Source of the DNA: Alphaproteobacteria bacterium | GTDB taxonomy: Bacteria; Pseudomonadota; Alphaproteobacteria; MPNO01 | Length of the DNA stretch: 64,000 nt | Assembly (NCBI GenBank): GCA_965248835.1 | Contig: CBDFLJ010000001.1 | Location: 32,001 to 96,000 of the forward strand | Direction of reading: 5' to 3' | Shown: one piece after another, positions 2,041-23,450 of the stretch | Position numbering within the stretch: position 1 is the first letter of the stretch | Layout of the letters: every line of letters starts with the position of its first letter | Translations under genes and position numbers: made by a program | Notes under the pieces: generated by a model | The model's database searches: none | Told to the model about the DNA's origin: nothing | The model's input: the letters and a program-made list of their open reading frames with translations, nothing else

Positions 2041-2226
2041 GGGCCTATTCCGCCGGGGCTGCGGAGCGGTCCACCGGGAGCCCGCGGCAGGAACACGCGT
2101 CAGCGTCCCGGGAAGCGGTGCAGCGAGGCGGTCGCGCGGGGCCGCCCGTATCGGGGAACCAGGCACCGACCGGTTGTCCGGCGCGAGTCTCGTCATGCGG
2201 CGCGCTGTCTCCGCGCCGCGCGCCCG

Positions 2227-3408
2227 CTATCCGGTCTGCAGCAGCGAGTAGCGCTCGTCGGCGGCCAGGCATTCGGCCTCGGGAAGGCCGAGCTCCTTGC
2301 GCACGATATTGGTCCCCAACACCAGCGAGACCGTCTTGTAGCGGGCATGGCGCCGGCTCATGCCTTCGCGCCCCATGCCGCAGTCCGAGCACAGGATCAG
2401 CCGTTCGGCGGGCACGTGCTTGAGCGCCTCGCGGATGTTCGCGGCGATCTCCTCGGGACGCTCCACTTGCAACGTATGGTGGTCGATCATGCCGATGGCC
2501 ACCTTCTTGTCGGTGATCACCTCGCCGATCGCCTTGAGATCGATATGGCCCGAGCTGCAGGACTCGAAAGTGATCACGTCGGCATCGACCTGATTGAGGT
2601 ATTCGAGCGTCGGGGCGTAGCTCTGCACCTCGACGAACATGCGCTGCTGCGAGGGATTGCCCCAGCAGGTGTGGCACCAGACCTCCGTCTTGTCGCGCAG
2701 CCCCTTGACCGTGTTGTCGAAGACGTCGACCAGCGCCCGGGCATCGAGCTTGCCGAAGGCCGGCCCGCGCACCGGCGTCATGTGGATCTGCGGCTCCTCG
2801 AGCTGGATGACCGGACAGCCGGCATCGGCGAGCGCGTCGAGCTCGGCGTTCAGCGCCGCGCTCAGCGCCATGACCCGCTCGACCGGATCCTTGTAGAACC
2901 TGTCCTCGACCGCGGCCGCCAGGATCTCGGGCACGATGGTGCCGAACTTCACCGGCTTGCCGGTCATCCGCTGGGCGGTCTTCCACATCGCGGTGTATTG
3001 CAGGTCGCCGGGCCCGACGGCTCCGACGATCGCCGGCATCACCCGGGCTTCGAGGTAGTCGTGGAGGATGTGGCCGCGCGGGAAGCCGACCCCGCCCATG
3101 CGGTAGACCGCGGCCTCCGGCGCGGCCCTGTCGAAGCCGGCCATGTGGTAGGGCGGGTAGCTGGTCCAGCTCTGACCGCCGACTTCGTTGTCGTAATGGG
3201 CGTCGCCGTCGGTGAGGATGTCGAGCCCGGCGGTCTCCTGGTCGTTGACATAGACCGCCACCGTATCGGTGTATTGCTCGCGGAACCGTGCATCGACCAT
3301 GGCGTGGAGGAACGACCGGGGCCCGAGGTTCTCGGTATACCAGCTCGGCCGCGGCAGCGAGCCGATCAGCGCGGTTGGCAGCACGGCATCGGCGGTGGCG
3401 CGGTACAT
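2227..3408 (-). CDS. Cobalamin-independent methionine synthase II family (single-barrel MetE/XecA-like) Zn protein
   Basis: GSLPRP start, DQETAGLDILTDG, Zn ligands HTCWGN, ESC and SDCG. 393 aa from ATG at 3408. Confidence 0.85.
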   Translation of the reverse strand: MYRATADAVLPTALIGSLPRPSWYTENLGPRSFLHAMVDARFREQYTDTVAVYVNDQETAGLDILTDGDAHYDNEVGGQSWTSYPPYHMAGFDRAAPEAAVYRMGGVGFPRGHILHDYLEARVMPAIVGAVGPGDLQYTAMWKTAQRMTGKPVKFGTIVPEILAAAVEDRFYKDPVERVMALSAALNAELDALADAGCPVIQLEEPQIHMTPVRGPAFGKLDARALVDVFDNTVKGLRDKTEVWCHTCWGNPSQQRMFVEVQSYAPTLEYLNQVDADVITFESCSSGHIDLKAIGEVITDKKVAIGMIDHHTLQVERPEEIAANIREALKHVPAERLILCSDCGMGREGMSRRHARYKTVSLVLGTNIVRKELGLPEAECLAADERYSLLQTG

Positions 3409-3603
3409 GGCGAAGGCCCTTCGGTTACGGGATTCCAGCCGCCTGCTCGACGGCAAATGGAATCCTTGGTCACGCCGGCACGTCGAGGCAAGCGAAATCC
3501 GCGCGCGGGCGGCCGGGCGGTCCGCAACCCTCCATTGAGCGATCGTAGCGGCTCGGCTACAAGGACGAGATAGCGACATGTCGCATCGAGCGGTGGGACG
3601 GGG

Positions 3604-4365
3604 ATGGCATCGGTAAGACCCGCGGCGCTGGTGACCGGCTCGGCGACCGGGATAGGCCGGGCAGAGGCGATCGCGCTCGCCGGCGCCGGCTATGATGTCG
3701 TCGTCAACTACAGCCGCAGCGAGACCGCAGCGCGCGAGACCGCTTCGGCCTGCGAGGCCGCCGGCGCCCGTACCTTGGTCGTCGCCTGCGACGTTGCCGA
3801 CAACGCAGCGGTCGCGGCGATGGTCGAGGAGACGCACAAGGCGTTCGGCCGGCTCGACGTGCTGTGCAACAACGCCGGCATCACGTCCAGGACCGCATTC
3901 AAAGACCTCGACAGCATGGATTGGGCCGATTGGGACCGCGTGTTCTCGGTCAACGTGCGCGGCCTCGTCCAGGTAAGCCGCGCCTGCGTGCCGATGTTGC
4001 GCGCGGCCAGGGGGACGATCGTCAACACCGCGAGCATCGTGGGCCTCAGGCCCGGGCCGCAGCCGCTCGCCTATTCCGCGTCCAAGGCGAGCGTGGTCTC
4101 GCTGACCAGGACGCTGGCTTTGGCGCTCGGCCCCGACATCCGGGTCAACGCGGTCGCGCCGGGCTGGATGGAAGGCGATTGGATGGCACGCATGCTGGGC
4201 GAAAACTACGACCGGCTGATGGAGCGCCGGTCCCGGATGACGCCGCTCCAGCGCTGTGTGACCGCCGAGGATGTCGCCGAGACGATGCTCTCGCTCGTCC
4301 AGGCGAACCGTTTCGTCACCGGCGAGATCGTCGTCGTCGACGGCGGGTTCGCCGCATCGACCTGA
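3604..4365 (+). CDS. Short-chain dehydrogenase/reductase (SDR)
   Basis: TGSATGIG, NNAG, YSASK and VNAVAPG motifs. Confidence 0.92.
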   Translation: MASVRPAALVTGSATGIGRAEAIALAGAGYDVVVNYSRSETAARETASACEAAGARTLVVACDVADNAAVAAMVEETHKAFGRLDVLCNNAGITSRTAFKDLDSMDWADWDRVFSVNVRGLVQVSRACVPMLRAARGTIVNTASIVGLRPGPQPLAYSASKASVVSLTRTLALALGPDIRVNAVAPGWMEGDWMARMLGENYDRLMERRSRMTPLQRCVTAEDVAETMLSLVQANRFVTGEIVVVDGGFAAST

Positions 4366-4391
4366 ACGCAGCGAGCAAAGGGAGGACCGGC

Positions 4392-6038
4392 ATGCTCGAA
4401 GGCGTTGTCCCGTTTCCGCCGGATTTCGCAGCCCGATACCGCGAGAAAGGCTATTGGGACGACCGGTCGTTGCGCGATCAATTCAAGGACGTCTTCGCCC
4501 GTCACGCCGAGCGCGTCGCGGTGATCGACGGCGATGTGATCGCAACCTATCGCGACCTCGACGAGCGGTCGCAGCGTCTCGCGCTCAACCTGCTCGACCT
4601 CGGGATCCGGCCGCTCGACCGCGTGGTGGTGCTGCTGCCGAACGTGATCGAGTTCGTCTATCTCTACTTCGCGCTGCAGAAGATCGGCGCCATCCCGATC
4701 TGCGCGCTGGCTGCGCACCGGTATCTGGAGGTCAACCAGTTCACCGCGATCGCACAGGCCAGGGCTTGCGTCGCGCCGGACCGGTTGGGCGATTTCGCGT
4801 TCGCACCGATGATCGAACGTGTGGCGGCCGGCAACGACTGTCTCGCCCACCGCATCATCCTGGGCGAGGCCCCCGCCGGCTGCCATTCGCTGCGCGACCT
4901 CCTTGACAGGACGCCGAAGAGCACGGCGGCGGATCTCGAGGCGATCGCGATCGACCCCACCGATCCGGCCGTCTTTCAGCTTTCGGGCGGGACCACCGGG
5001 GTGCCGAAGCTCATCCCGCGGACCCACAACGACTATTTCTGCAACTCGCGGCTCGCGGTCTCGGTGACCGAGGTGGGTCCGCAGAGCTGTCTGCTGCTGG
5101 TGCTGCCGATCGGCCACAACCTGCCGCTCGCCTGCCCCGGGCTGCAGGGTTTCCTGATCCAGGGCGGGCGCGTGGTGCTGTCGACCTCGCCGCGCGCGCC
5201 GGACGTCTTCCGGCTGGTGGAGGCGCACAAGGTCAGCCACATCCACTGCGTGCCCGCGCTCCTGATCCGCTGGATCAACGACCCCGGCATCGGCGACTAC
5301 GACCTGTCCTCGCTGCGCATGATCCAGTCCGGCGGCCAGCGGCTCCAGCCCGAGGTCAGGCTGCGCACCAGGGAGCTGATCCCGAGCGTGTTCGTCCAGG
5401 AGAACTTCGGCATGTCCGAAGGCACGATCATGTTCGTGCGCCGCGGCGATCCTCCGGATGTCCAACTCGAGACCGTCGGCCGGCCGGTCTGCCCCGACGA
5501 CGAGGTGCGGCTGATCGACGATGACGGCAACGAGGTGCCGTTCGGCGAGGTCGGCGAGCTCTGCGTGCGCGGCCCCTACACACTGCGCGGCTATTACGGC
5601 GTGCCGGAGCACAACGCGATGGCGTTCACCGCCGATGGGTTCTACTGCTCCGGCGATCTGATGCGCCAGCACCGGTCGGGCAACTACATGGTCGAGGGCC
5701 GCAAGAAGGACGTCATCAACCGCGGCGGCGAGAAGATCTCCGCCGAGGAGATCGAGAACCTGATCCTCCAGCATCCCGGCGTCCAGAACGTCGCCTGCGT
5801 CGCGATGCCCGACCCGGTCCTGGGCGAGCGCATGTGCGCCTGCGTGATCCCGCGCGCGGGGATGGACGTGGCGTTCGATGACCTGCTCGCCTTCCTGAGC
5901 GCGAAGGAGTTCGCCAAGCACAAGCTCCCCGAACGGCTCGAACTGATGGACGATTTCCCGCTGTCGAATTTCGGCAAGGTGTCCAAGAAGGCCCTGGTGG
6001 AGATGGTAAGCGGCAAGCTCCGGGCCGAGGCGGGATAG
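4392..6038 (+). CDS. Aryl-acid adenylating enzyme / CoA ligase (DhbE/EntE/salicylate-AMP ligase family)
   Basis: FQLSGGTTGVPKLIPRTHNDY, HNLPLACPG, FGMSEG, GRKKDVINRGGEKI. GGAGG RBS upstream of ATG 4392. Confidence 0.88.
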   Translation: MLEGVVPFPPDFAARYREKGYWDDRSLRDQFKDVFARHAERVAVIDGDVIATYRDLDERSQRLALNLLDLGIRPLDRVVVLLPNVIEFVYLYFALQKIGAIPICALAAHRYLEVNQFTAIAQARACVAPDRLGDFAFAPMIERVAAGNDCLAHRIILGEAPAGCHSLRDLLDRTPKSTAADLEAIAIDPTDPAVFQLSGGTTGVPKLIPRTHNDYFCNSRLAVSVTEVGPQSCLLLVLPIGHNLPLACPGLQGFLIQGGRVVLSTSPRAPDVFRLVEAHKVSHIHCVPALLIRWINDPGIGDYDLSSLRMIQSGGQRLQPEVRLRTRELIPSVFVQENFGMSEGTIMFVRRGDPPDVQLETVGRPVCPDDEVRLIDDDGNEVPFGEVGELCVRGPYTLRGYYGVPEHNAMAFTADGFYCSGDLMRQHRSGNYMVEGRKKDVINRGGEKISAEEIENLILQHPGVQNVACVAMPDPVLGERMCACVIPRAGMDVAFDDLLAFLSAKEFAKHKLPERLELMDDFPLSNFGKVSKKALVEMVSGKLRAEAG

Positions 6039-6054
6039 AAGGGGCCGGGACGCG

Positions 6055-6897
6055 ATGCGGATCATCGACCTCCACTGCTACACCAACACCCAGCCATGGA
6101 TCGATTGCCAGGGACCCTATGTCGAGGCCTTGGCCGCATATTGGAAGCGCGCCTGGACGGCGAAGGAGGAGGACGAGGTCATCGCCGAGTTCGCCGAGGC
6201 CGGTGTCGACGCCGTCCTCGTCGCGCTTGACCTCGAGACCACGGTGGCCACCCCGCCGTGCTCCAACGACTATGTCGCAGGGATGTGGAAGCGCCACCCA
6301 GACAGGATCATCCAGGCCTGGGCCGCGGTCGATCCGTTCAAGGGCGAGATCGCCATCCGCGAGGCCCGGCACGCGATCGAAGACCTCGGCATGCTCGGCT
6401 TCCACTTCCATCCGATCATGGGGCATTTCGCCGTCAACGATGCCCGGCTCTACCCGCTTTGGGAGACCATCGCCGCGCTCGACGTGCCGGTGATGATCGA
6501 TGTCGGCACCACCGGCATGGGGGCCGGCATGCCCGGCGGCATGGGCGCGAGGATCCGCCACGCCCACCCGCTCACCCTCGACGACCTGGCGAGCGACTTC
6601 CCCGACCTCAGGATCGTCGCCGCTCACCCGGGCTGGCCGTGGGGCAAGGAGATGACCGCGGTAGCCCTCCACAAGGGCAACGTATACTGGGAGCTGTCGG
6701 GCTGGGCGCCGAGATATTTCCCCGATTCGCTCAAGCGCGACGTGCGCGGCCGGCTCAAGGACAAGATCATGTTCGGCAGCGACTATCCGAGCCTGCCCTA
6801 TGAGCGGATCTTTCGCGAATGGGACGAGCTCGGCTACACGCCGGAGATCATGGAGAAGGTCTTCCACAAGAACGCCGAAGACTTTCTCGGGTTGTGA
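6055..6897 (+). CDS. Amidohydrolase_2 family protein
   Basis: IDLHC start, GFHFHP, AHPGWPW and FGSDYP motifs. Confidence 0.85.
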   Translation: MRIIDLHCYTNTQPWIDCQGPYVEALAAYWKRAWTAKEEDEVIAEFAEAGVDAVLVALDLETTVATPPCSNDYVAGMWKRHPDRIIQAWAAVDPFKGEIAIREARHAIEDLGMLGFHFHPIMGHFAVNDARLYPLWETIAALDVPVMIDVGTTGMGAGMPGGMGARIRHAHPLTLDDLASDFPDLRIVAAHPGWPWGKEMTAVALHKGNVYWELSGWAPRYFPDSLKRDVRGRLKDKIMFGSDYPSLPYERIFREWDELGYTPEIMEKVFHKNAEDFLGL

Positions 6898-6949
6898 ACA
6901 CGACGGCGCACCATCACGCGTGCACGTCCAGAGCGGAACGGAGCCCCGG

Positions 6950-9900
6950 GTGCAACGCATACGCAAACTCCTGGTCGCCAACCGCGGCGAGATCGCGATT
7001 CGCGTCATGCGGGCGGCGACCGAGCTCGGCATCCGCACCGTCTCGGTCCATTCGCACGAGGACCGTTTCGCGCTGCACCGCTTCAAGGCCGACGAGAGTT
7101 ACTGGATCGGCCGGTCCAAGCGCCCGGTCGAGGCCTATCTCGACATCGAGGACATGGTCGCGATCGCCCGCATGGCGGGCGCGGACGCGGTCCATCCGGG
7201 CTACGGTTTTCTGTCGGAGAACCCCGATTTCGCCGAGGCGTGCGCCGCTGCCGGGTTGATCTTCATCGGTCCGCCGGCGGCGGTCATGCGCCGGCTGGGC
7301 AACAAGATCTCGGCCCGCGCGCTGGCCCAGGAGGCCGGCGTCCCGGTGGTGCCGGCGAGCGGGCCGCTGCCCGACGATCCGGCGGCGGCGGTGCGCATCG
7401 CCGACGAGATCGGCTTCCCCGTCATGCTCAAGGCGAGTTGGGGCGGCGGCGGGCGCGGCATGCGGGTGATCGCCCACGCGGGCGAGGTGGCCGAGGCCGT
7501 CGAGGCCGCCCGCCGCGAGGCCGCCGCCTCATTCGGCAACGACGAGGTCTATTTCGAGAAGCTGATCGGCAATGCGCGCCATGTCGAGGTCCAGGTGCTC
7601 GCCGACGCGCACGGCTCCATCCTGCACCTGTTCGAGCGCGACTGCACCGTCCAGCGGCGCCATCAGAAGATCGTCGAACGGGCGCCGGCGCCCTATCTCG
7701 ACGACGACATGCGGGCCGCGCTGTGCGAGTCCGCCCGCGCCATCGCCCGGACCGCCGGCTACGTCAACGCCGGCACGGTCGAGTTCCTGCAGGACGCCGA
7801 TTCCGGGCAGTGCTACTTCATCGAGGTCAACCCGCGCATCCAGGTCGAGCACACCGTGACCGAATGCGTAACCGGGATCGACATCGTCAAGGCCCAGATC
7901 CGCATCGCCGAGGGCGCGCGCGCCGGCGATGCCGGCGGCGCCGTGCCCAGCCAGGACGAGATCGCGATCAACGGCCACGCGATCCAGTGCCGGGTGACGA
8001 CGGAGAACCCGGAGCTCGATTTCGCGCCGGACCATGGCCGCATCCACGCCTACCGCAGCGCGTCGGGCTTCGGCATCCGGCTGGATGCCGGCAACGCCTT
8101 CCCCGGTGCGCTGATCACCCCGTACTACGATTCGCTCCTGGTCAAGATCACCGCCTGGGGGCGGACACCGGACGAGGCGGCCACACGGATGGACCGTGCG
8201 CTGCGCGAGTTCCGGGTGCGCGGGGTGGCGACCAACCTCCGCTTCCTCGAAGCGGTGATCGGCCATGCCGATTTCAGGAACGCGCGCTGCACGACGCGTT
8301 TCATCGACCAGACGCCTGAGCTGCTCCGTTTCGCCCCGCGGCGCGACCGGGCGAGCCGGCTGCTGTCCTTCCTGGGCGAGGTGATCGTCAACGGCAACCC
8401 CGAGGTCGCCGGCCACGCGCGCCCGAAGACCGGCCCGGCCGCTCTGCCGCGGCCCGCCGGTGAGGGGATACCGCCCGCCGGGACCCGCCAGAAACTCGCC
8501 GAGCTTGGCGCCGAAGGGCTGGTCCGCTGGGTTGCCGAGCAGGACCGCGTGCTTCTGACCGACACCACATTGCGCGATGCCCACCAGTCGCTGCTGGCGA
8601 CCCGGATGCGGACCCATGACCTCGTGGGCGCGGTGCCGGCCTACGCGCAAGACCTGACCGGACTGTTCTCGCTCGAATGCTGGGGCGGGGCGACGTTCGA
8701 TGTCGCCATGCGATTCCTCAATGAATCGCCCTGGGACCGTCTGGCGCGGATCTCCGAGGCGTGCCCCAACATCCTCCTCCAGATGCTGCTGCGCGGCGCC
8801 AACGCGGTGGGCTACACCAGCTATCCCGACAACGTTGTGCGTCATTTCGTCGGCCAGGCCGCCGAGGCGGGCATCGACGTCTTCCGCATCTTCGATTCGC
8901 TCAACTGGGTCGAGAACATGCGCGTTGCGATCGACGCGGTGCGCGAGACCGGAAAGATCTGCGAAGTCGCGATCTGCTACACCGGCGACGTCGACGACCC
9001 GGCGCGGCGCAAATACGACCTCGGCTACTATGTCGGTCTCGCCCATGAACTCGCCGATGCCGGCACCCAGATCCTCGGCATCAAGGACATGGCCGGGGTC
9101 TGCCGGCCGCAGGCAGCGCGCAAGCTGGTGCATGCGCTGAAAGAGGCGGTCGGCCTGCCGATCCACTTCCACACCCACGACACCAGCGGCATCGCGGCGG
9201 CCAGCGTCCTGGCCGCGGCCGATGCGGGGGCGGACATCGTCGATGCGGCGCTGGATTCGATGAGCGGCCTGACTTCACAGCCCAATCTCGGTGCCATCGT
9301 CGAGGCGCTGCGCCGCGGCCCGCGCGACACCGGCATCGACCCGGCTCGCATTCGCGCGCTGTCGGACTATTTCGAGCAGGTGCGGCGCGCCTACGCGCCG
9401 TTCGAGAGCGACATGCGCTGGGGCGCCTCGGAAGTCTATGTCCACGAGATGCCGGGCGGCCAGTACACCAACCTGCGCCAGCAGGCCGCCGCGCTGGGGC
9501 TCGCCGACCGCTGGCCGGACGTCGCGCGCACCTATGCCGAAGTCAACGCGATGTTCGGCGACGTGATCAAGGTCACGCCGACCTCGAAGACCGTCGGCGA
9601 CATGGCGTTGGCGATGGTCACCCGCGACCTGAGCGTTGAGCAGGTGCTCGACCCGGCGGTCGAGGTGGCGTTCCCGGCCTCGGTGATCTCCTTCTTCCGG
9701 GGTGAGATCGGCCAGCCGCCGGGGGGCTTCCCGGCAGCGTTGCAGGAAAAGGTGCTGGGCGGCGAAGCCCCGCTGACCGTCAGGCCGGGCGCGGTGCTCG
9801 AGCCGGTCGACCTCGCTTCCGAGCTCCGGGACGCGGAGAAGGCCGTCCACCGCCATATCGACGAGCGCGAGCTCGCCTCCTACCTGATGTACCCCAAGGT

Positions 9901-10414
9901 CTTCATCGACTACGCAAGGACGCGCCGCCAGTTCGGCGACGTCTCGGTGCTGCCGAGCCTCGCCTATTTCTACGGCATGGAACCGGGCGAGGAGATCGAT
10001 GCCGGGATCGAGCAGGGTAAGCGGCTCATCATCCGTTTCCTCGCGTTGGGCGATGCCGACGAGCATGGCGACCGCAGCGTGTTTTTCGAGCTCAACGGCC
10101 AGCCGCGGTCGATCCGGGTGGTCGACCGGACGGTCGAGCCCGCGCACGCCGCCCACCCCAGGGCGGATGCGGATGACCCCTGCCATGTCGGCGCGCCGAT
10201 GCAGGGCGTGGTCATCGCGCTGGCCGCCGAGCCCGGGCAGACCGTCCGCCGCGGCGATCCGCTCCTGACCCTGGAAGCGATGAAGATGGAAATGGTCGTC
10301 CGTGCCGAGCTGGAAGGGACCGTCGCCGACATCATCGCCCCGGTCGGCACCGCGGTTTCGGCCGGCGACCTGCTGGTCGAGCTCACCCCGGCCGCGCAGC
10401 CCGGACCGGCCTAA
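6950..10414 (+). CDS. pyc: Pyruvate carboxylase
   Basis: KLLVANRGEIAIR biotin carboxylase domain, DTTLRDAHQSLLATR carboxyltransferase domain, EAMKM biotin site. GTG start at 6950. Confidence 0.96.
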   Translation: MQRIRKLLVANRGEIAIRVMRAATELGIRTVSVHSHEDRFALHRFKADESYWIGRSKRPVEAYLDIEDMVAIARMAGADAVHPGYGFLSENPDFAEACAAAGLIFIGPPAAVMRRLGNKISARALAQEAGVPVVPASGPLPDDPAAAVRIADEIGFPVMLKASWGGGGRGMRVIAHAGEVAEAVEAARREAAASFGNDEVYFEKLIGNARHVEVQVLADAHGSILHLFERDCTVQRRHQKIVERAPAPYLDDDMRAALCESARAIARTAGYVNAGTVEFLQDADSGQCYFIEVNPRIQVEHTVTECVTGIDIVKAQIRIAEGARAGDAGGAVPSQDEIAINGHAIQCRVTTENPELDFAPDHGRIHAYRSASGFGIRLDAGNAFPGALITPYYDSLLVKITAWGRTPDEAATRMDRALREFRVRGVATNLRFLEAVIGHADFRNARCTTRFIDQTPELLRFAPRRDRASRLLSFLGEVIVNGNPEVAGHARPKTGPAALPRPAGEGIPPAGTRQKLAELGAEGLVRWVAEQDRVLLTDTTLRDAHQSLLATRMRTHDLVGAVPAYAQDLTGLFSLECWGGATFDVAMRFLNESPWDRLARISEACPNILLQMLLRGANAVGYTSYPDNVVRHFVGQAAEAGIDVFRIFDSLNWVENMRVAIDAVRETGKICEVAICYTGDVDDPARRKYDLGYYVGLAHELADAGTQILGIKDMAGVCRPQAARKLVHALKEAVGLPIHFHTHDTSGIAAASVLAAADAGADIVDAALDSMSGLTSQPNLGAIVEALRRGPRDTGIDPARIRALSDYFEQVRRAYAPFESDMRWGASEVYVHEMPGGQYTNLRQQAAALGLADRWPDVARTYAEVNAMFGDVIKVTPTSKTVGDMALAMVTRDLSVEQVLDPAVEVAFPASVISFFRGEIGQPPGGFPAALQEKVLGGEAPLTVRPGAVLEPVDLASELRDAEKAVHRHIDERELASYLMYPKVFIDYARTRRQFGDVSVLPSLAYFYGMEPGEEIDAGIEQGKRLIIRFLALGDADEHGDRSVFFELNGQPRSIRVVDRTVEPAHAAHPRADADDPCHVGAPMQGVVIALAAEPGQTVRRGDPLLTLEAMKMEMVVRAELEGTVADIIAPVGTAVSAGDLLVELTPAAQPGPA

Positions 10415-11352
10415 CGAAACGACGGATCTTCCGGGTTCAGGTTGTCCGAGTGGGTCGAATCCCGGCCCATATAGACGCCGCGCTCCCAGGTCCGCTTCAA
10501 GGGGTCTTCGACGGAGACCGCCATCCGGCCGATACCCTCGATCTCGATCTCGGCGAGATCGCCGTCCTGCAGCGGGCCGAGCCCTTCATGGTTGGTGCCG
10601 CAACCGATCACGTCGCCCGAATTCAGCGTCATGATCTCGCTCGCCCAGGCGATCAACTCGGGCACCGGGTGCTCCATGTCGGCGGTGTTGTAGTCATGGC
10701 GGAGCTGGCCGCAGTCCCAGAACCGGACATGCAGAGCGTTCGGGTCGGCAACCTCATCGGCGGTCAGGATGGACGGCCCGAGCGGCGCAAAACTGTCGAA
10801 GGACTTTCCCATCCAGCTCCGCGCGCGCCAGGTCGAGCGCCCCTCGCCGCGGGCGGACACGTCGATCAGACAGGTAAAGCCGAACACCGCCCGGCGCCAA
10901 TCCTGCGCGCGCACCTTCTTGGCCGGGCCCCTGATGACGATCGCGAGCTCGGCCTCGTGGTGGAACACCCAGGGCTCGGTCATCTCCGGCAAGACTATGG
11001 TCTCGCCCGGGCCGATCACCGAATCGGGGTTCTTGAGGAACATGTTGAGCGGCCGCGCCTCGCGCTCGCGGTGCTCCCAGTAGTTGCCGATGCAGCACAG
11101 GATCTTGCCCGGGCGCGGCAGCGGAGCGCGCAATCGGACGGAGTCCGCCGGCAACGCCTCGCCATCGGCTGCCAGCCGTTCAAGATCCGGCCGCAACGCA
11201 TCGAATTCGTCGATGATTGCGTTGATCGTCTGCTGCGGTGCCGCATCCGGCCGCGCCCGAACCGCCGCGGCGATACCGACCACCCCGCGCGGCGTGAGCA
11301 GGCCGGGCACCACCGCGCCGTCGGCCGCCGTCTGATAGAGCACGAGCTTCAC
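10411..11352 (-). CDS. Fumarylacetoacetate hydrolase family protein
   Basis: KILCCIGNY, FLK, HHEAELAIVI, GKSFDSFAPLGP motifs. Confidence 0.9.
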   Translation of the reverse strand: MKLVLYQTAADGAVVPGLLTPRGVVGIAAAVRARPDAAPQQTINAIIDEFDALRPDLERLAADGEALPADSVRLRAPLPRPGKILCCIGNYWEHREREARPLNMFLKNPDSVIGPGETIVLPEMTEPWVFHHEAELAIVIRGPAKKVRAQDWRRAVFGFTCLIDVSARGEGRSTWRARSWMGKSFDSFAPLGPSILTADEVADPNALHVRFWDCGQLRHDYNTADMEHPVPELIAWASEIMTLNSGDVIGCGTNHEGLGPLQDGDLAEIEIEGIGRMAVSVEDPLKRTWERGVYMGRDSTHSDNLNPEDPSFR

Positions 11353-11379: not shown

Positions 11380-11790
11380 TCAGCCCCGCGCGGTCTTGAA
11401 CAGGTAGGCCGCGAAGTCGGCGGGCTTGAGCTTGAAGTCCCGAGTCGCCTCACCGGCCAGCGCCCGCTCGACCAGGATGCCGTTCTCGACCTTCTCGGGC
11501 TTTACGCGAAAGACCCCGGAGGTTCCCCTGATGCGCGGGTAGTAGTTCGGATCGAGCACCGTCTCCCGCGCTGCGAGGCGTTCGAGGACCGCCTCTTCGC
11601 TCAGAGACTCGTCTTCCGCTTTGACCAGCGTCCAGTCCGTCGCGCGGCCGCATTCCTGTTCATTCAGCGCCGCGACCGCCGCCTTGGCAGTGTCTTCGGT
11701 CACGCCGACCTTGAACAGGTGCTTGCTGATCCCGACATCCCCGCCCCAGTCCGACAGCGTTTTCGAGCGGGCGACATAGATGACGGCCAT
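11380..11790 (-). CDS. Hypothetical protein (weak GIY-YIG/T5orf172-like N-terminus)
   Basis: GGAGG RBS, host-like codon usage, VIYV...LFKVGVT motif. Confidence 0.7.
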   Translation of the reverse strand: MAVIYVARSKTLSDWGGDVGISKHLFKVGVTEDTAKAAVAALNEQECGRATDWTLVKAEDESLSEEAVLERLAARETVLDPNYYPRIRGTSGVFRVKPEKVENGILVERALAGEATRDFKLKPADFAAYLFKTARG

Positions 11791-11805
11791 GGCCTGCCTC
11801 CCCGG

Positions 11806-12855
11806 CTAGGTTTGCGCGCAGTCCAGAGCATGTTCCGCTCGCACAGGGTCGGCCAAGCCGAATTGGCGGGCCAACAGAGCGTAGCTCCTGCGGCGGACGG
11901 CCTCGTCATGAGTCCAGGTGACGACCGCGATCTCCTGGACATCGAGCCGCTCGGCGAGCTCGCGGATCTGTGCCGCGACGCGCTCGGGCGTGCCGACGAA
12001 CGCGCGCCGACGAAGCTCGTCGAGGCGCGCGGCCTCCTGCGCGCTATAGGGATGGGCCGCCGCGACCTCGGGCGGGTCGAGCGGCAGGTAGATCCCCTGG
12101 TTGCGGAAGAGTTGCCATTTCGCCCGCGGCCAATAGTGATGCTGGGCTTCTTCCTCGGACTCCGCGGCGAGCGCCCAGACGCACAGCCCGCCATGGGGAA
12201 TCGGGTGACGCTCGCTCGATCGGTAAGTCTCGCGGTAGATCTCCAGCGCCTCCCGTCCGCCGCGCCCGTCGGTGAAGAACCAGGCGAAGCAGTAGGGCAG
12301 GCCGAAATGCGCCGCCACCTGCGCGCCGTAGTCGGAGCTGCCGAGCACCCAGACCTCCGGCACGGTCTCGCCCTGAGGGTAGGCGCGCACCTTGGCAAAC
12401 GGATGGCCTTCGACCAGCGGTGTGCCCGCCACCCAGGCCAGCAGATCCCGCACGTCGGCCGGAAACTGGTGCGGCCGATCGTTGGCCATGGGATGCAGCG
12501 CGAACGCCGTCAGGCCGTCGGAGCCCGGCGCCCGGCCGAGCCCGAGATCGATCCGCCCGGGCGCCAGCGCGTCGAGCACGCGGAACTGCTCGGCGACCTT
12601 GAAGGGCGAATAGTGCGGCAGCATCACACCGGCGCTGCCGATCCGGATGCGCCGTGTGGTCGCAGCAATGGCGGCGATCAGGATCTCGGGCGCGGTGCCG
12701 AGGATGGTCGGGTGGTTGTGGTGCTCGGAGACCCAGAAGCGATGATAGCCCAGGGACTCGCAATGCGCGGCAAGTGCCAACGTATCGCGGATCGTCCGGT
12801 CGTGGGGCCGTCCGGCCGCGGCGATCGACTGGTCGAGAACGGAAAGGCGCAGCAC
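11806..12855 (-). CDS. LLM class flavin-dependent oxidoreductase (luciferase-like)
   Basis: LSVLDQS, FWVSEHH, IRIGSAGVMLPHYSP, GRIDLGLGRAPG. Confidence 0.92.
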   Translation of the reverse strand: MLRLSVLDQSIAAAGRPHDRTIRDTLALAAHCESLGYHRFWVSEHHNHPTILGTAPEILIAAIAATTRRIRIGSAGVMLPHYSPFKVAEQFRVLDALAPGRIDLGLGRAPGSDGLTAFALHPMANDRPHQFPADVRDLLAWVAGTPLVEGHPFAKVRAYPQGETVPEVWVLGSSDYGAQVAAHFGLPYCFAWFFTDGRGGREALEIYRETYRSSERHPIPHGGLCVWALAAESEEEAQHHYWPRAKWQLFRNQGIYLPLDPPEVAAAHPYSAQEAARLDELRRRAFVGTPERVAAQIRELAERLDVQEIAVVTWTHDEAVRRRSYALLARQFGLADPVRAEHALDCAQT

Positions 12856-12881
12856 ACGGGGCTCCGGTTCGAATGCGGCGC

Positions 12882-13355
12882 TCAGAGCGCGGCGATGCAG
12901 CTTTGCAGCGCGGCCGCTTCGGCGCGCTCGAAAGCCTCGGCGAGCGCGGCTTCATCCGCTTCGGGGCTCGGCCCCGCTTCGGCCCGCAACGCGAAGGGAA
13001 TGCCCGCACTGCTGCCGGCCAGCTCGGCCGCGCCGTCGGCGCGCGCGATCCGCGCACGGCCATGACGGGTTATTTCGATGTCGGAGCCTTCGACGACGAG
13101 CCGGCAGCGAACGACGGCTTCGTCACCCTCGCGCAGCCGCCCGATCACCGTATGCGACCAGCCCTCGGTCGGCCGGCCGGCGGTCTCGAATCCCGTCGCC
13201 GCAGCGGCGGATGCCAAGCGCGACCGGGTCTGCGCACGCCTCGGCGGCACGGTGGCCGGTGCCTCGCCGTACAGCGCCTCCAGCCTCTTGCGGCCGTCCT
13301 CCAGAATCCGATCGAAGGGTCGTGACGGCGGCTCGCGGGCGTCGGCGGCGGCCAT
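12882..13355 (-). CDS. Hypothetical protein
   Basis: Fills the gap in a minus-strand gene run. No recognisable motif and the start is uncertain. Confidence 0.55.
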   Translation of the reverse strand: MAAADAREPPSRPFDRILEDGRKRLEALYGEAPATVPPRRAQTRSRLASAAAATGFETAGRPTEGWSHTVIGRLREGDEAVVRCRLVVEGSDIEITRHGRARIARADGAAELAGSSAGIPFALRAEAGPSPEADEAALAEAFERAEAAALQSCIAAL

Positions 13356-13362
13356 GGCGCGC

Positions 13363-14076
13363 TCAGCCTTCGGCGCCGGCGGGAGCCGACCACCAGCGAT
13401 GAAAGTCATCGGCGGCCGCCACGGCCAGCCCGCCTTCGATCGTCAGCGTGCCGAGATAGTCGATGACCTCGGCGCCGGTCACCACGTCGCCGTACTTGGC
13501 TTCGATATCGAACAGGTTCGCCTCATGCGGGCCGTCCGCCCGGTCGCCGACGGCATCGCCGACGACGACAGTGTGAAAGCCATGCTGGATCGAATCAATC
13601 GCCGAGGCGCGGATGCAGCCGCTGGTCGTGCACCCGGTCATGACCAGGGTATCGATGCCGAGGCCGGCGAGATAGGCATCGAGCCCGGTGCCGAAAAAGG
13701 CGCTCGCCATTTTCTTTTCGAGCACGTATTCGCCGGGGCGCGGACGGACCCGGTCGTCCACCGCAACCATGGCCGTGCCCTTCCTGAGGATCTCCAGCGA
13801 GGGGACCTTGCGCATCCACATGCCGCCGTCCCGGAGGTCGCTCTCATAGGCGATGACGGTGTATATGACCGGCAGCCGGGCGCTTCGGAAGGAGGAGAGC
13901 AGACCCTGCGTGACCGCGATCTCGGCCGAAAAATCCCCACCCAGCGGCGTCGCCGGATCGGTGAAGCCGTTGATGAAATCGATGACCAGGAGCGCCGGCG
14001 TCCGCCCGTAGCCGGTGCGCACCGCAAAGCCCTTGCGCTTGTAGTCCGCGCGCGTTGCGTCTTCCCATTCCGCCAT
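13363..14076 (-). CDS. Isochorismatase-family cysteine hydrolase (N-carbamoylsarcosine/maleamate amidase-like)
   Basis: Triad motifs LLVIDF, KKMASAF and GCTTSGCIRAS. GGAGG RBS. Confidence 0.88.
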   Translation of the reverse strand: MAEWEDATRADYKRKGFAVRTGYGRTPALLVIDFINGFTDPATPLGGDFSAEIAVTQGLLSSFRSARLPVIYTVIAYESDLRDGGMWMRKVPSLEILRKGTAMVAVDDRVRPRPGEYVLEKKMASAFFGTGLDAYLAGLGIDTLVMTGCTTSGCIRASAIDSIQHGFHTVVVGDAVGDRADGPHEANLFDIEAKYGDVVTGAEVIDYLGTLTIEGGLAVAAADDFHRWWSAPAGAEG

Positions 14077-14260
14077 GACATGCCTCCGACGGTCACGATA
14101 CCCGGCGGCCGGGATGCCATCAACCGGGTCACAGGCCACGCCCGTGGGCTGCCCCGATAGCCGGGCGCGTTTGGCCGTTGGATCTTTTCGAGGCGCAAAT
14201 ATAGTCTCGCCGCAACCGTCCCGGACGCGGCTTGCGGTCCATCGAAGGCATTGGCATCCC

Positions 14261-15943
<1,683 letters not shown>

Positions 15944-17443: not shown

Positions 17444-17693
17444 CGGATCCTTAGGCCACCGAATTCGAGCCTCATCGTTCTCGGCTGCGATGATCTGAAC
17501 TACGCTCTACCCCGGCAAGGCACACCATCTCTGCAAAGGCCTCCTCGAAGCGCCCTCCTGCCATTAGACGAAATGGCGTATCACAGCGCACGCGCAATTG
17601 CGAGTCCGCGCAGCGCGGCGGCCGCACATCGCCGGCCGGCCGTTGCAGCATGCGCACAACCGCCACGGTCCGTGCAATCGGACGACCGAGGCA

Positions 17694-17724
17694 TTGACTT
17701 AATGACATACATATATCTTTATGT
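17694..17724 (+). promoter_or_regulatory. Promoter -35 (TTGACT) with a SahR-type operator just downstream (ACATACATATATCTTTATGT, 17705-17724)
   Basis: AT-rich imperfect 20-bp palindrome resembling the recalled SahR box (ATAAAG-ATAT-CTTTAT core), directly upstream of sahR-metF-metH. Confidence 0.72.
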
Positions 17725-17758
17725 ATTGATAAGCGTGGGCCTGGGCTGGAGGGAGCAT

Positions 17759-18757
17759 TTGGACACTCTGTTGAGCGCATTGCGTGCCGTCGCCGAGCCG
17801 ACCCGGCTGAGGCTGTTGGCGGCCTGCGCGCAGGGCGAGATGACGGTCAGCGAGCTTACGACGATTCTCGGCCAAAGCCAGCCTCGGATCTCGCGTCATC
17901 TCAAGGTGATGTGCGATGCCGGCCTGCTCGAGCGGTTCCGCGAGGGATCCTGGGTATTCTACCGCCTGGTCGAGCCGCGCACCGGCCCCGCCGGGGCACT
18001 CGCCAAGGACGTGCTGGCCCTGATCCCCGAGGATGCGGCGGGCCTCGCGCGCGACCGGATGCGCATTGCCCAGATCAAGGATGCCCGCGCGGCCCGCGCC
18101 GCGGCCTATTTCCGCGCCAATGCCGCGCAATGGGACGGCATTCGCTCGATGCATATCGACGAGCATGTCGTGGAGCGGGCGCTGCAGGAAGCGTTGCCTG
18201 CGGATCGCATCGAGGACCTGCTGGATATCGGGACCGGGACCGGAAGGATTCTGGAGCTGCTCGGGCCCAGGATCGGCTACGGCGTCGGCATCGATCTGTC
18301 GCGTGCAATGCTTGCGGTCGCGCGCGCCAATCTCGAAGCGCGCGCGCTGACCAACTGCCAGGTGCGCCAGGGCGACATGTACGACCTGCCGTGGGACGAT
18401 GCCCGTTTCGATGCGGTGACCATCCATCAGGTGCTGCATTTCGCGGACGACCCGGCGGCCGCGATCGCCGAGGCCGCGCGGGTGCTGCGCGTGGGCGGCC
18501 GGATCGCTATCGTCGATTTCACGCCGCACGACCGCGAGGAGTTGCGGATCGAGCACGCCCACCGCCGTCTGGGCTTCGGCGACGAGGAAGTCGCGGACTG
18601 GTTTCGCGCCGCCGGGCTGCGGCTGGACAGCATCCGCCATCTGGCCGGCGATCCGCTGACGGTCGGCCTGTGGGCGGCCGGCCGGGACGTCGATGCCGGG
18701 CGGGCCGGCGTGGGCGCGACCGCGGCCGCAAGCCCCGCCTTGGCAGCCTCCCCATGA
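17759..18757 (+). CDS. sahR: ArsR-HTH / SAM-methyltransferase-fold regulator SahR
   Basis: AEPTRLRLL..GQSQPRISRHLK HTH plus LLDIGTGTG SAM motif. TTG start, ATGA overlap with metF. Confidence 0.85.
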   Translation: MDTLLSALRAVAEPTRLRLLAACAQGEMTVSELTTILGQSQPRISRHLKVMCDAGLLERFREGSWVFYRLVEPRTGPAGALAKDVLALIPEDAAGLARDRMRIAQIKDARAARAAAYFRANAAQWDGIRSMHIDEHVVERALQEALPADRIEDLLDIGTGTGRILELLGPRIGYGVGIDLSRAMLAVARANLEARALTNCQVRQGDMYDLPWDDARFDAVTIHQVLHFADDPAAAIAEAARVLRVGGRIAIVDFTPHDREELRIEHAHRRLGFGDEEVADWFRAAGLRLDSIRHLAGDPLTVGLWAAGRDVDAGRAGVGATAAASPALAASP

Positions 18758-19697
18758 CCGGGCGTGGCCCGACCCCTTCGGCGCCGCTGACGCTGCCCAG
18801 CCCGCCCGGAAGCGGCAAGAACCTCAAGGTCTCCTTCGAGTTCTTCCCGCCCAAGAACGACAAGGCGGAGGCCGCCCTTTGGGACTCGATCGCCAGGCTG
18901 GAATCGCTGCGGCCGCGTTTCGTCTCGGTGACCTACGGCGCCGGCGGCTCGACCCGCGACCGGACCCACCAGACCGTCACCCGCATCCAAAGCCAGACCC
19001 CTCTTCAGGCCGCGGCGCATCTGACCTGCGTCGCCGCGACCCGGGATGAGGTCGACGACGTGGCCCGCCGCTATTGGCAAGCCGGCATCCGCCATATCGT
19101 TGCTCTGCGCGGCGATCCGCCGGAAGGCGAGGCCGGCTACCGGCCGCACGACAACGGCTATGCCTATGCCGCCGATCTCGTCGGCGGTCTGAAGCGCATC
19201 GCCGATTTCGAGATCAGCGTGGCCGCCTATCCGGAAACCCATCCCGAGGCGCCGACCGCCGAGGCCGACATCGACAACCTCAAGCGCAAGATCGATGCCG
19301 GGGCGAGCCGGGCGATCACCCAGTACTTTTTCGACATCGAGGTGTATTTGCGGTTCATCGACCGGGTGCGCGCGGCCGGCGTCAGCCTGCCGATCGTTCC
19401 GGGGATTCTGCCGGTGACCAACTTCGCCCAGATCGTGCGCTTCAGCGCGATGTGCGGCGCTTCGGTGCCGGATTGGATGGCCGATCTCTTCGACGGCCTG
19501 GACGAGGATCCGGAGACCCGCAAGCTCGTCGCGGCGACGATCGCGGCCGAGCAATGCCGCCTGCTGCAGGCCAATGGCGTGGACGAGTTCCATTTCTACA
19601 CCCTCAACCGCGCGGACCTGGTCTACGCGATCGCCCACATCCTGGGGATGCGGCCGGTACATGGCACGCAAGCCCCGGCCGTCAGAGAGTCAGGCTG

Positions 19698-19698
<1 letters not shown>
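18754..19698 (+). CDS. metF: 5,10-methylenetetrahydrofolate reductase
   Basis: [34 protein letters not shown]. Confidence 0.96.

Positions 19699-23450
<3,752 letters not shown>

Follow-up and report, generated by a model that had tools for sequence, protein, structure and literature searches.

We analysed a 64,000-nucleotide stretch of an Alphaproteobacteria bacterium (GenBank assembly GCA_965248835.1, contig CBDFLJ010000001.1, positions 32,001 to 96,000; hereafter the window, with coordinates counted from its first letter), in which a 9-kb region around the gene of a MetE-like protein (P0001) had been proposed to encode an undescribed catabolic pathway. We found that this region is probably a juxtaposition of four independent pieces, with no pathway built around the MetE-like enzyme. 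The first piece would be the stand-alone gene of a zinc enzyme of the MetE superfamily, from a compact, patchy and strongly conserved clade that lacks a characterised member. The second would be a conserved cassette (hereafter the trio) for a short-chain dehydrogenase/reductase (SDR), a salicylate-type ligase and an Amidohydro_2 protein, which is found beside varying transporters, regulators and genes of β-oxidation type. The third and fourth pieces are, in all likelihood, the single housekeeping pyruvate carboxylase of the genome and an FAH-family hydrolase whose gene is the last of an adjacent run on the minus strand. The gene identities, conservation counts, clade structure and residue patterns given below are observations, and every substrate and reaction is a proposal.

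The list of open reading frames (ORFs) and the family scans agreed with the initial annotation on gene content, order and strands throughout. The gene of P0001 (2227-3408, minus strand) encodes 393 amino acids from the first in-frame ATG and belongs to the single-barrel part of the MetE superfamily (Pfam PF01717, Meth_synt_2; 92.9 bits with a cut-off of 21). A divergent spacer of 195 bp (3409-3603) lies between it and the plus-strand run, which starts with a FabG-like SDR (P0123; 3604-4365; adh_short_C2, 206.8 bits), continues with an aryl-acid adenylating ligase of the DhbE/EntE/salicylate-AMP ligase type (P0121; 4392-6038) and a 280-amino-acid Amidohydro_2 protein (P0122; 6055-6897; PF04909, 149 bits), and leads into pyc for pyruvate carboxylase (from a GTG at 6920 or 6950 to 10414; NF009554, 1741 bits with a cut-off of 965). 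The intergenic gaps along this run are 26, 16 and 22-52 bp. The gene of the FAH-family hydrolase (P0124; 10411-11352, minus strand; PF01557, 160 bits) is convergent with pyc.

To compare this arrangement across genomes, we drew on two surveys. The survey of the MetE-like gene, which used one genome per species, recovered 586 stretches that encode relatives of P0001; we retained the best 80 loci, with 68-92% identity, which stem from Alpha-, Beta- and Gammaproteobacteria. The survey of the ligase gave 453 relatives; the best 80 loci (64-92% identity) represent six or more groups at phylum level, among them Alpha-, Beta- and Deltaproteobacteria, Chloroflexota, SAR324, Binatia and Eremiobacterota. 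Window proteins were matched to the MetE-like loci by tblastn (E ≤ 1e-10, with a recount at E ≤ 1e-8, and a coverage of at least 60%).

The proposed pathway had been made to depend on a conserved neighbourhood, and the neighbourhood is not conserved. Among the 80 MetE-like loci, 65 have at least 3.6 kb of upstream DNA, enough to show the trio, and the SDR, ligase and amidohydrolase genes lie beside the MetE-like gene in only one of these 65. Window-type copies of the three genes (87-92% identity) were found in that locus alone (L001), and neither pyc nor the FAH gene was detected by tblastn in any of the 80. L001 belongs to a near relative in which positions 2189-6905 of the window are syntenic at 86% nucleotide identity. 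A GmrSD-type restriction gene (L001:2570-4567) takes the place of pyc there, at a breakpoint of synteny, and of the FAH gene the two genomes have just the final 450 bp in common. Gene clustering likewise returned no conserved partner of the MetE-like gene. The commonest neighbouring clusters were NadE (17/80), DUF2865 (16/80) and EamA (14/80), all of which reflect synteny within a single soil lineage, and the genes directly beside it vary widely. The MetE-like gene usually stands alone in its relatives.

The trio presents the opposite picture. In loci with room to show the gene in question, a same-strand SDR orthologue immediately precedes the ligase gene in 64 of 74 loci, an Amidohydro_2 gene, also on this strand, immediately follows it in 68 of 75, and the ligase gene is flanked by both in 53 of 69. 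By comparison, a MetE-like gene occurs near the ligase orthologue in 1 of 66 loci with room, on the same contig as L001, and pyc occurs in none of the 57 loci that have at least 4.5 kb of downstream DNA. The high adjacency of the SDR and Amidohydro_2 genes, set against the near-zero adjacency of the MetE-like gene and pyc, indicates that the trio is a real conserved unit. The idea that the region holds a candidate undescribed system thus survives for the trio, which is widely conserved and apparently undescribed, but this system is not built around the MetE-like enzyme. A limited literature search on the trio, and on the structural relative of its third protein (BB4693, 3IRS), turned up nothing relevant, so that the cassette may still have been published.

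Several observations weigh against the independence of the pieces. The divergent arrangement of the MetE-like gene and the trio is retained in two related genomes, and lineage-specific co-regulation is therefore possible. Five assemblies appear in both lists of the best 80 loci (OZ241868, DATJPD01, DATJLQ01, DASWFO01 and JBOHLS01), with adjacency in only one of them, and in a sampled, unpublished genome (G207) orthologues of P0001 and of the Amidohydro_2 protein are encoded on separate contigs; the MetE-like gene and the trio accordingly co-occur in some genomes. Some members of the P0001 clade have a different AMP-binding ligase as a neighbour (L002, L005, L073, L192 and L193), and some have other Amidohydro_2 or SDR genes beside them. 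The gap between the Amidohydro_2 gene and pyc is just 22-52 bp, with no terminator-like site on the plus strand, so that pyc may be co-transcribed with the trio in this genome. In addition, the neighbour clusters rest on heuristic gene calls in the related loci that are based on GC content at third codon positions (GC3), and the trees described below were built without MesA, MesB, MesC and the C-terminal barrel of MetE.

Some of these observations would fit a lineage-specific recruitment, in which the MetE-like enzyme adds a thiol to an intermediate of the cassette, or transfers a methyl group to or from it, and the divergent spacer provides common control. The roughly 20 other MetE-like paralogues of the genome, which sit in catabolic islands, also favour such a recruitment. 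We nevertheless consider it improbable. Of the informative loci, only one in each survey (1 of 65 and 1 of 66) shows adjacency, and the sole conserved case is a close relative, for which synteny carries little weight. In the four other assemblies in which the genes co-occur, as in G207, they are on different contigs. The ligases beside clade members in L002, L005, L073 and L193 are only 28-30% identical to P0121 (the one in L192 is known by Pfam family only), and the Amidohydro_2 protein beside the L193 clade members has no significant similarity to P0122. The clade members in L193 and L192 are more distant (47-50% identical) and form a tandem pair in the former (L193:8079-10568) and a single gene in the latter (L192:8060-9268). 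In both loci the neighbours include a biopterin-dependent aromatic amino acid hydroxylase as well as the AMP-binding ligase, and the pair also adjoins the Amidohydro_2 gene.

The divergent spacer contains a perfect 8-bp inverted repeat, GGATTCCA-N20-TGGAATCC, at 3430-3465, 22 bp upstream of the start codon of the MetE-like gene, but the second arm is not kept in L001, and we rejected the repeat as a shared operator. A promoter scan of the spacer found no sigma-70-like site. The absence of a riboswitch, pointed out from the sequence at the outset, also held in our scans: no Rfam family reached its gathering score in the window, and none gave E ≤ 1 at 3300-3700. Scans of seven orthologue loci were similarly negative upstream of the MetE-like gene. 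A single cobalamin riboswitch turned up in L036, on the opposite strand and some 3 kb downstream, where it adjoins a gene for cobalamin adenosyltransferase.

Within the trio, the ligase is the protein with the clearest relatives. Its best match in the PDB is the salicylate-AMP ligase 5wm2 (E 1.4e-145), and it is homologous over its full length to the salicylate- and 2,3-dihydroxybenzoate (DHB)-AMP ligases as a group (5wm2, DhbE 1md9, EntE and PchD; E 1e-132 to 1e-145). Against the model for (2,3-dihydroxybenzoyl)adenylate synthase (TIGR02275), P0121 scores 508 bits, under the equivalog cut-off of 723.55. The motif HNLPLACPG agrees with 5wm2 (..LACPG) and not with the DHB ligases (..SSPG). The change from S to C in this motif, which we take from the DhbE literature to mark salicylate specificity, is backed here by the P0121 alignment only. 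Unlike the known salicylate- and DHB-AMP ligases, P0121 is encoded at a locus without an aryl carrier protein or a nonribosomal peptide synthetase, and ligases of its type are paired with an SDR and a 280-amino-acid Amidohydro_2 protein amid transporters and regulators. P0121 is encoded by a single-copy gene in the genome, where the next best protein is 32% identical.

The third protein of the trio, P0122, has no characterised close relative. Its top hit in the PDB, 3irs (E 6e-20), is itself the uncharacterised protein BB4693. NCBIfam has no matching model, and Protein Atlas gave only generic ‘amidohydrolase’ clusters. A second copy of this small Amidohydro_2 type, 40% identical to P0122, is encoded elsewhere in the genome (G000:C1:519232-520074). 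We tentatively suggest, with low confidence, that the trio activates, oxidises and hydrolyses an ortho-hydroxy ring carboxylate. The ligase would activate the carboxylate, in which the hydroxyl group is in the β position, the SDR would oxidise the hydroxyl group and the Amidohydro_2 protein would carry out a hydrolysis that feeds the genes of β-oxidation type often found beside the trio.

The genes around the trio are more variable. Among 81 loci (the 80 related loci and the window), we found genes for TetR (22), a second, longer Amidohydro_2 protein (17), enoyl-CoA hydratase (ECH; 15), LysR (14), TctC (14), GMC oxidoreductase (12), FAH (11, including the window), an MTHFR-like protein (8) and thiolase (6). 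Genes for FAH-like proteins of only 29-36% identity occur about 4 kb from the trio on the other strand in 9 of the 80 ligase loci, mostly in Stellaceae. Some Stellaceae loci (L114, L117, L133, L137, L149 and L152) have a recurrent extended cluster, in which the trio is followed by genes for a GMC oxidoreductase and an MTHFR-like protein and by a convergent FAH gene. An MTHFR-like gene is also found near one of the MetE-like paralogues of the genome that contains the window (L174).

The two remaining pieces are readily placed. The pyc product has biotin carboxylase, carboxyltransferase and biotinyl domains and also exceeds the cut-off of TIGR01235 (1714 bits versus 1114). No other protein of the 4.9-Mb genome exceeds the pyruvate carboxylase cut-off (NF009554), and, as the sole full-length pyruvate carboxylase, the pyc product is best regarded as the housekeeping copy, outside the cassette. 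For the FAH-family hydrolase P0124, the best PDB match is the maleylpyruvate hydrolase 6jvv (E 6e-46), and P0124 shares the FAA_hydrolase domain with that enzyme and with the HpaG/HpcE branch of the family. Unlike in maleylpyruvate hydrolase systems, however, no gentisate dioxygenase gene lies beside it, and it is not conserved with either the trio or the MetE-like gene. Upstream of the FAH gene, on the same strand (11380-14271), are a 136-amino-acid ORF, a gene for an MsnO8-type luciferase-like oxidoreductase (11806-12855), a 186-amino-acid ORF and a gene for an isochorismatase-family protein (13366-14271). Gaps of 15-27 bp join the FAH gene, the 136-amino-acid ORF and the MsnO8-type gene, which suggests that the FAH gene is the last of a separate transcription unit.

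With the neighbours set aside, the question is what kind of enzyme P0001 is. The initial annotation held that it is probably not a methionine synthase, and the curated models largely agree. Canonical MetE is a two-barrel protein of about 750 amino acids, whereas P0001 has 393. Against the MetE models, P0001 scores far under the cut-offs (TIGR01371, 70 bits versus 930; NF003556, 75 versus 541), and the same is true of the MesD model NF006589 (PRK09121), for which P0001 reaches 127 bits with a cut-off of 392, compared with 686 for a true MesD encoded beside MesX and 158-161 for EtnE and XecA. Two further models also give low scores (NF003317, 138 bits versus 406; NF002119, 56 versus 258). The best solved relative of P0001 is MesD (3rpd; E 4e-27), and the best plasmid match by tblastn is EtnE of Nocardioides sp. 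JS614 (30% identity, E 4e-33), the identity of which was confirmed from its alkene monooxygenase and ComA neighbours.

We built two trees of single-barrel proteins: one of 28 rows and a second of 36 rows, to which XecA, taken from pXAUT01, and seven members of 43-51% identity were added. In the first tree, the group of P0001 is sister to EtnE (support 96/89). In the second, it forms a clade of its own with 13 rows (100/100), which meets the XecA and EtnE clade (100/100), the MesD group (99/95) and one paralogue from the genome (C1:848873-849877) at an unresolved fork, within a clade that has a support of 97/96. The relationship to XecA that had been proposed for P0001 therefore extends to the larger clade that holds XecA and EtnE, but P0001 falls outside the clade formed by these two proteins.

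The sequence motifs lead to a similar conclusion. Zinc ligands of P0001 (H246, C248, E282 and C343) align with the ligand columns in all 36 rows. The four motifs that had been read as XecA-like (HxCWGN, ESC, DCG and GTxIVRxEL) are all present in P0001, but none is specific to XecA. HxCWGN is common to XecA, EtnE and several other paralogues of the genome. ESC is also found in XecA, whereas EtnE has EVG at this site. DCG occurs in 25 of 36 rows, with QCG in nine group-B paralogues and NCG in MesD, and GTNIVRKEL of P0001 corresponds to GAAIVRKEL in both EtnE and MesD. P0001 also differs from XecA and EtnE in its clade-specific insertions and in a C-terminal extension of about 20 amino acids.

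XecA of Xanthobacter autotrophicus Py2, which is annotated as 2-hydroxypropyl-CoM lyase, and EtnE are of the same single-barrel Meth_synt_2 fold family as P0001, and they share with it His-x-Cys...Glu...Cys zinc ligands, a similar HTCWGN motif and 30-35% identity. P0001 might on these grounds be an epoxyalkane:coenzyme M (CoM) transferase that is functionally equivalent to XecA and EtnE, with the zinc motif HTCWGN as in EtnE, ESC as in XecA, the sister position in the smaller tree and the best plasmid match all in favour. We consider this highly improbable, because the sister relation dissolves into the unresolved fork once XecA and more clade members are added, and because the substrate site differs. 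Where P0001 has GS, DGD and EEP, XecA and EtnE have GN, DGK or DGR, and DEF, a pattern that presumably binds CoM, and P0001 lacks the basic residue that these proteins have at the thiol-substrate site. The loci of XecA and EtnE also have monooxygenase, 2-KPCC and ComA genes as neighbours, and the window has no alkene monooxygenase, 2-KPCC or CoM genes near P0001. ComA (PF02679) was not found in the genome, whereas three control genomes were positive.

The positions that bind homocysteine in MetE and MesD (Ser433, Glu484 and Asp599 in Escherichia coli numbering), as given in PMC7857596, set the P0001 clade apart from its relatives. At these positions, the clade has GS in 11 of 13 rows, and DGD and x-E-E-P in all 13. 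Serine is kept, and the two acidic residues have traded places, with Asp instead of Glu at one position and Glu instead of Asp at the other; the acidic character is retained while the geometry is changed. By comparison, DGE is present in all 20 other paralogues of the genome and in MesD. At the site of Asp599, Q-x-D is found in 19 of these 20 paralogues, in MesD and in EtnE and XecA; the remaining paralogue, a long-branch row (C2_277144), has S-I-D. In more remote clusters at 50% identity (42-49% identical), the exchange of Glu and Asp is only partly kept.

We infer from the retained zinc ligands (His-x-Cys, Glu and Cys), the serine and the two acidic residues that P0001 would activate the thiol of an amino-acid-like substrate, either homocysteine or a close analogue, for the transfer of an S-methyl or S-alkyl group. 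As judged from these residues, the alkylation of an amino-acid-like thiol is the most likely role of P0001. The exchange of Glu and Asp speaks for a substrate geometry unlike that of the known methionine synthases. The enzyme is predicted not to depend on CoM and not to be a member of either MesD or MetE.

Alternatively, P0001 may be a folate-independent ‘core’ methionine synthase, a fifth family of the Mes type that acts as a backup for MetH when cobalamin is scarce. Such a role is possible but doubtful. MesD (3RPD; Acinetobacter ACIAD3523 type) is described in PMC7857596 as a folate-independent methionine synthase that works with MesX. P0001 and MesD share the serine of GSLP, a C-terminal helix that ends in ...IVRKEL and, in kind, both acidic residues at the site of the homocysteine amino group, and MesD is also the closest solved structure. 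The usual stand-alone position of the P0001 gene would suit a backup enzyme, as would metK genes within 3 kb in two of eight further loci (L190 and L196). By contrast, P0001 scores far under every curated methionine-synthase model, forms a clade separate from MesD and carries an exchange of Glu and Asp that is unique to its clade. Neither the window nor the seven orthologue loci have a riboswitch ahead of the gene, and the clade is patchy: of 301 genomes sampled from the class, 8 have it, and it was not found in the two sampled from the same order.

The genome also has other candidates for methionine synthesis. As initially annotated, a complete B12-dependent route lies about 14 kb from the MetE-like gene (17573-23450, plus strand): a sahR-like gene with an ArsR HTH (Pfam HTH_5) and a methyltransferase domain (17573-18757), metF with an MTHFR domain in an ORF that ends at 19698, and metH, which has five MetH domains and ends at 23450. 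The short spacer upstream of the sahR ORF has no usable palindrome. In addition to MetH, the genome encodes a paralogue closer to MesD than P0001 is (G000:C2:1563700-1564731, minus strand), which is sister to true MesD (100/97) and scores 370 bits on NF006589, just under the cut-off of 392. MesX (DUF1852, PF08908) was not found in this genome or in that of the near relative, whereas a control plasmid that carries Acinetobacter MesD gave 532 bits, and P0001 thus has no detected MesX partner.

P0001 is one of at least 21 single-barrel Meth_synt_2 paralogues in the 4.9-Mb genome, which fall into three main groups, include some tandem pairs and occur without a full-length MetE. Most of these genes sit in catabolic islands with genes for Rieske/VanA oxygenases, UbiD decarboxylases, Amidohydro_2 proteins, luciferase-like (LLM) proteins and molybdenum hydroxylases, and others of their neighbours encode TRAP transporters, nitrile hydratase and hydantoinase. 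Example sites are C1:498253-500585, C2:1135156-1137379 and C2:2428395-2429585. Next to the P0001 gene itself, beyond its 3′ end, the window has a convergent α/β-hydrolase-like gene (946-2040); at this place, after the P0001 orthologue, L001 has a second, YxjG-like Meth_synt_2 gene (L001:10052-11314). Behind one 72%-identical orthologue (L196) there is a DctP/DctM pair, an arrangement that is not common in the 80 loci. Among 1.84 billion representative proteins, 207 clusters at 50% identity match P0001 at E ≤ 1e-30, many of those listed being fragments. Two matches suggested fused or longer forms of P0001, and both look like chimeric gene calls. A limited literature search on MetE-like paralogues in catabolism turned up nothing specific; PMC12478193 concerns split MetH-type proteins and has no bearing on P0001.

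More speculatively, the DGD...EEP clade could represent a third functional class of single-barrel zinc enzymes that alkylate thiols. The thiol substrate of such enzymes would be amino-acid-like, and the methyl or alkyl donor or acceptor would be something other than folate, a corrinoid or CoM; a methylated or methoxylated organic acid could serve as this partner. In this lineage the gene may be controlled together with the salicylate-type cassette. We regard this extended proposal as rather unlikely. If true, a third class would fit the catabolic settings in which the superfamily has expanded to at least 21 copies in this genome.

Because the proposed pathway fails as a unit, the window reveals no new system around the MetE-like enzyme. 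Considered separately, the MetE clade and the three-gene cassette are of moderate specialist interest. The trio is spread over several phyla and occurs in cultured strains of Variovorax (sp. UMC13), Ramlibacter (R. rhizophilus CCTCC AB2015357) and Polaromonas (P. aquatica CCUG 39402), so that its substrate could be found by ordinary genetics. The well-delimited and strongly conserved clade of half-size MetE proteins, with its altered substrate site, adds to the evidence that many annotations as ‘methionine synthase II’ are wrong.

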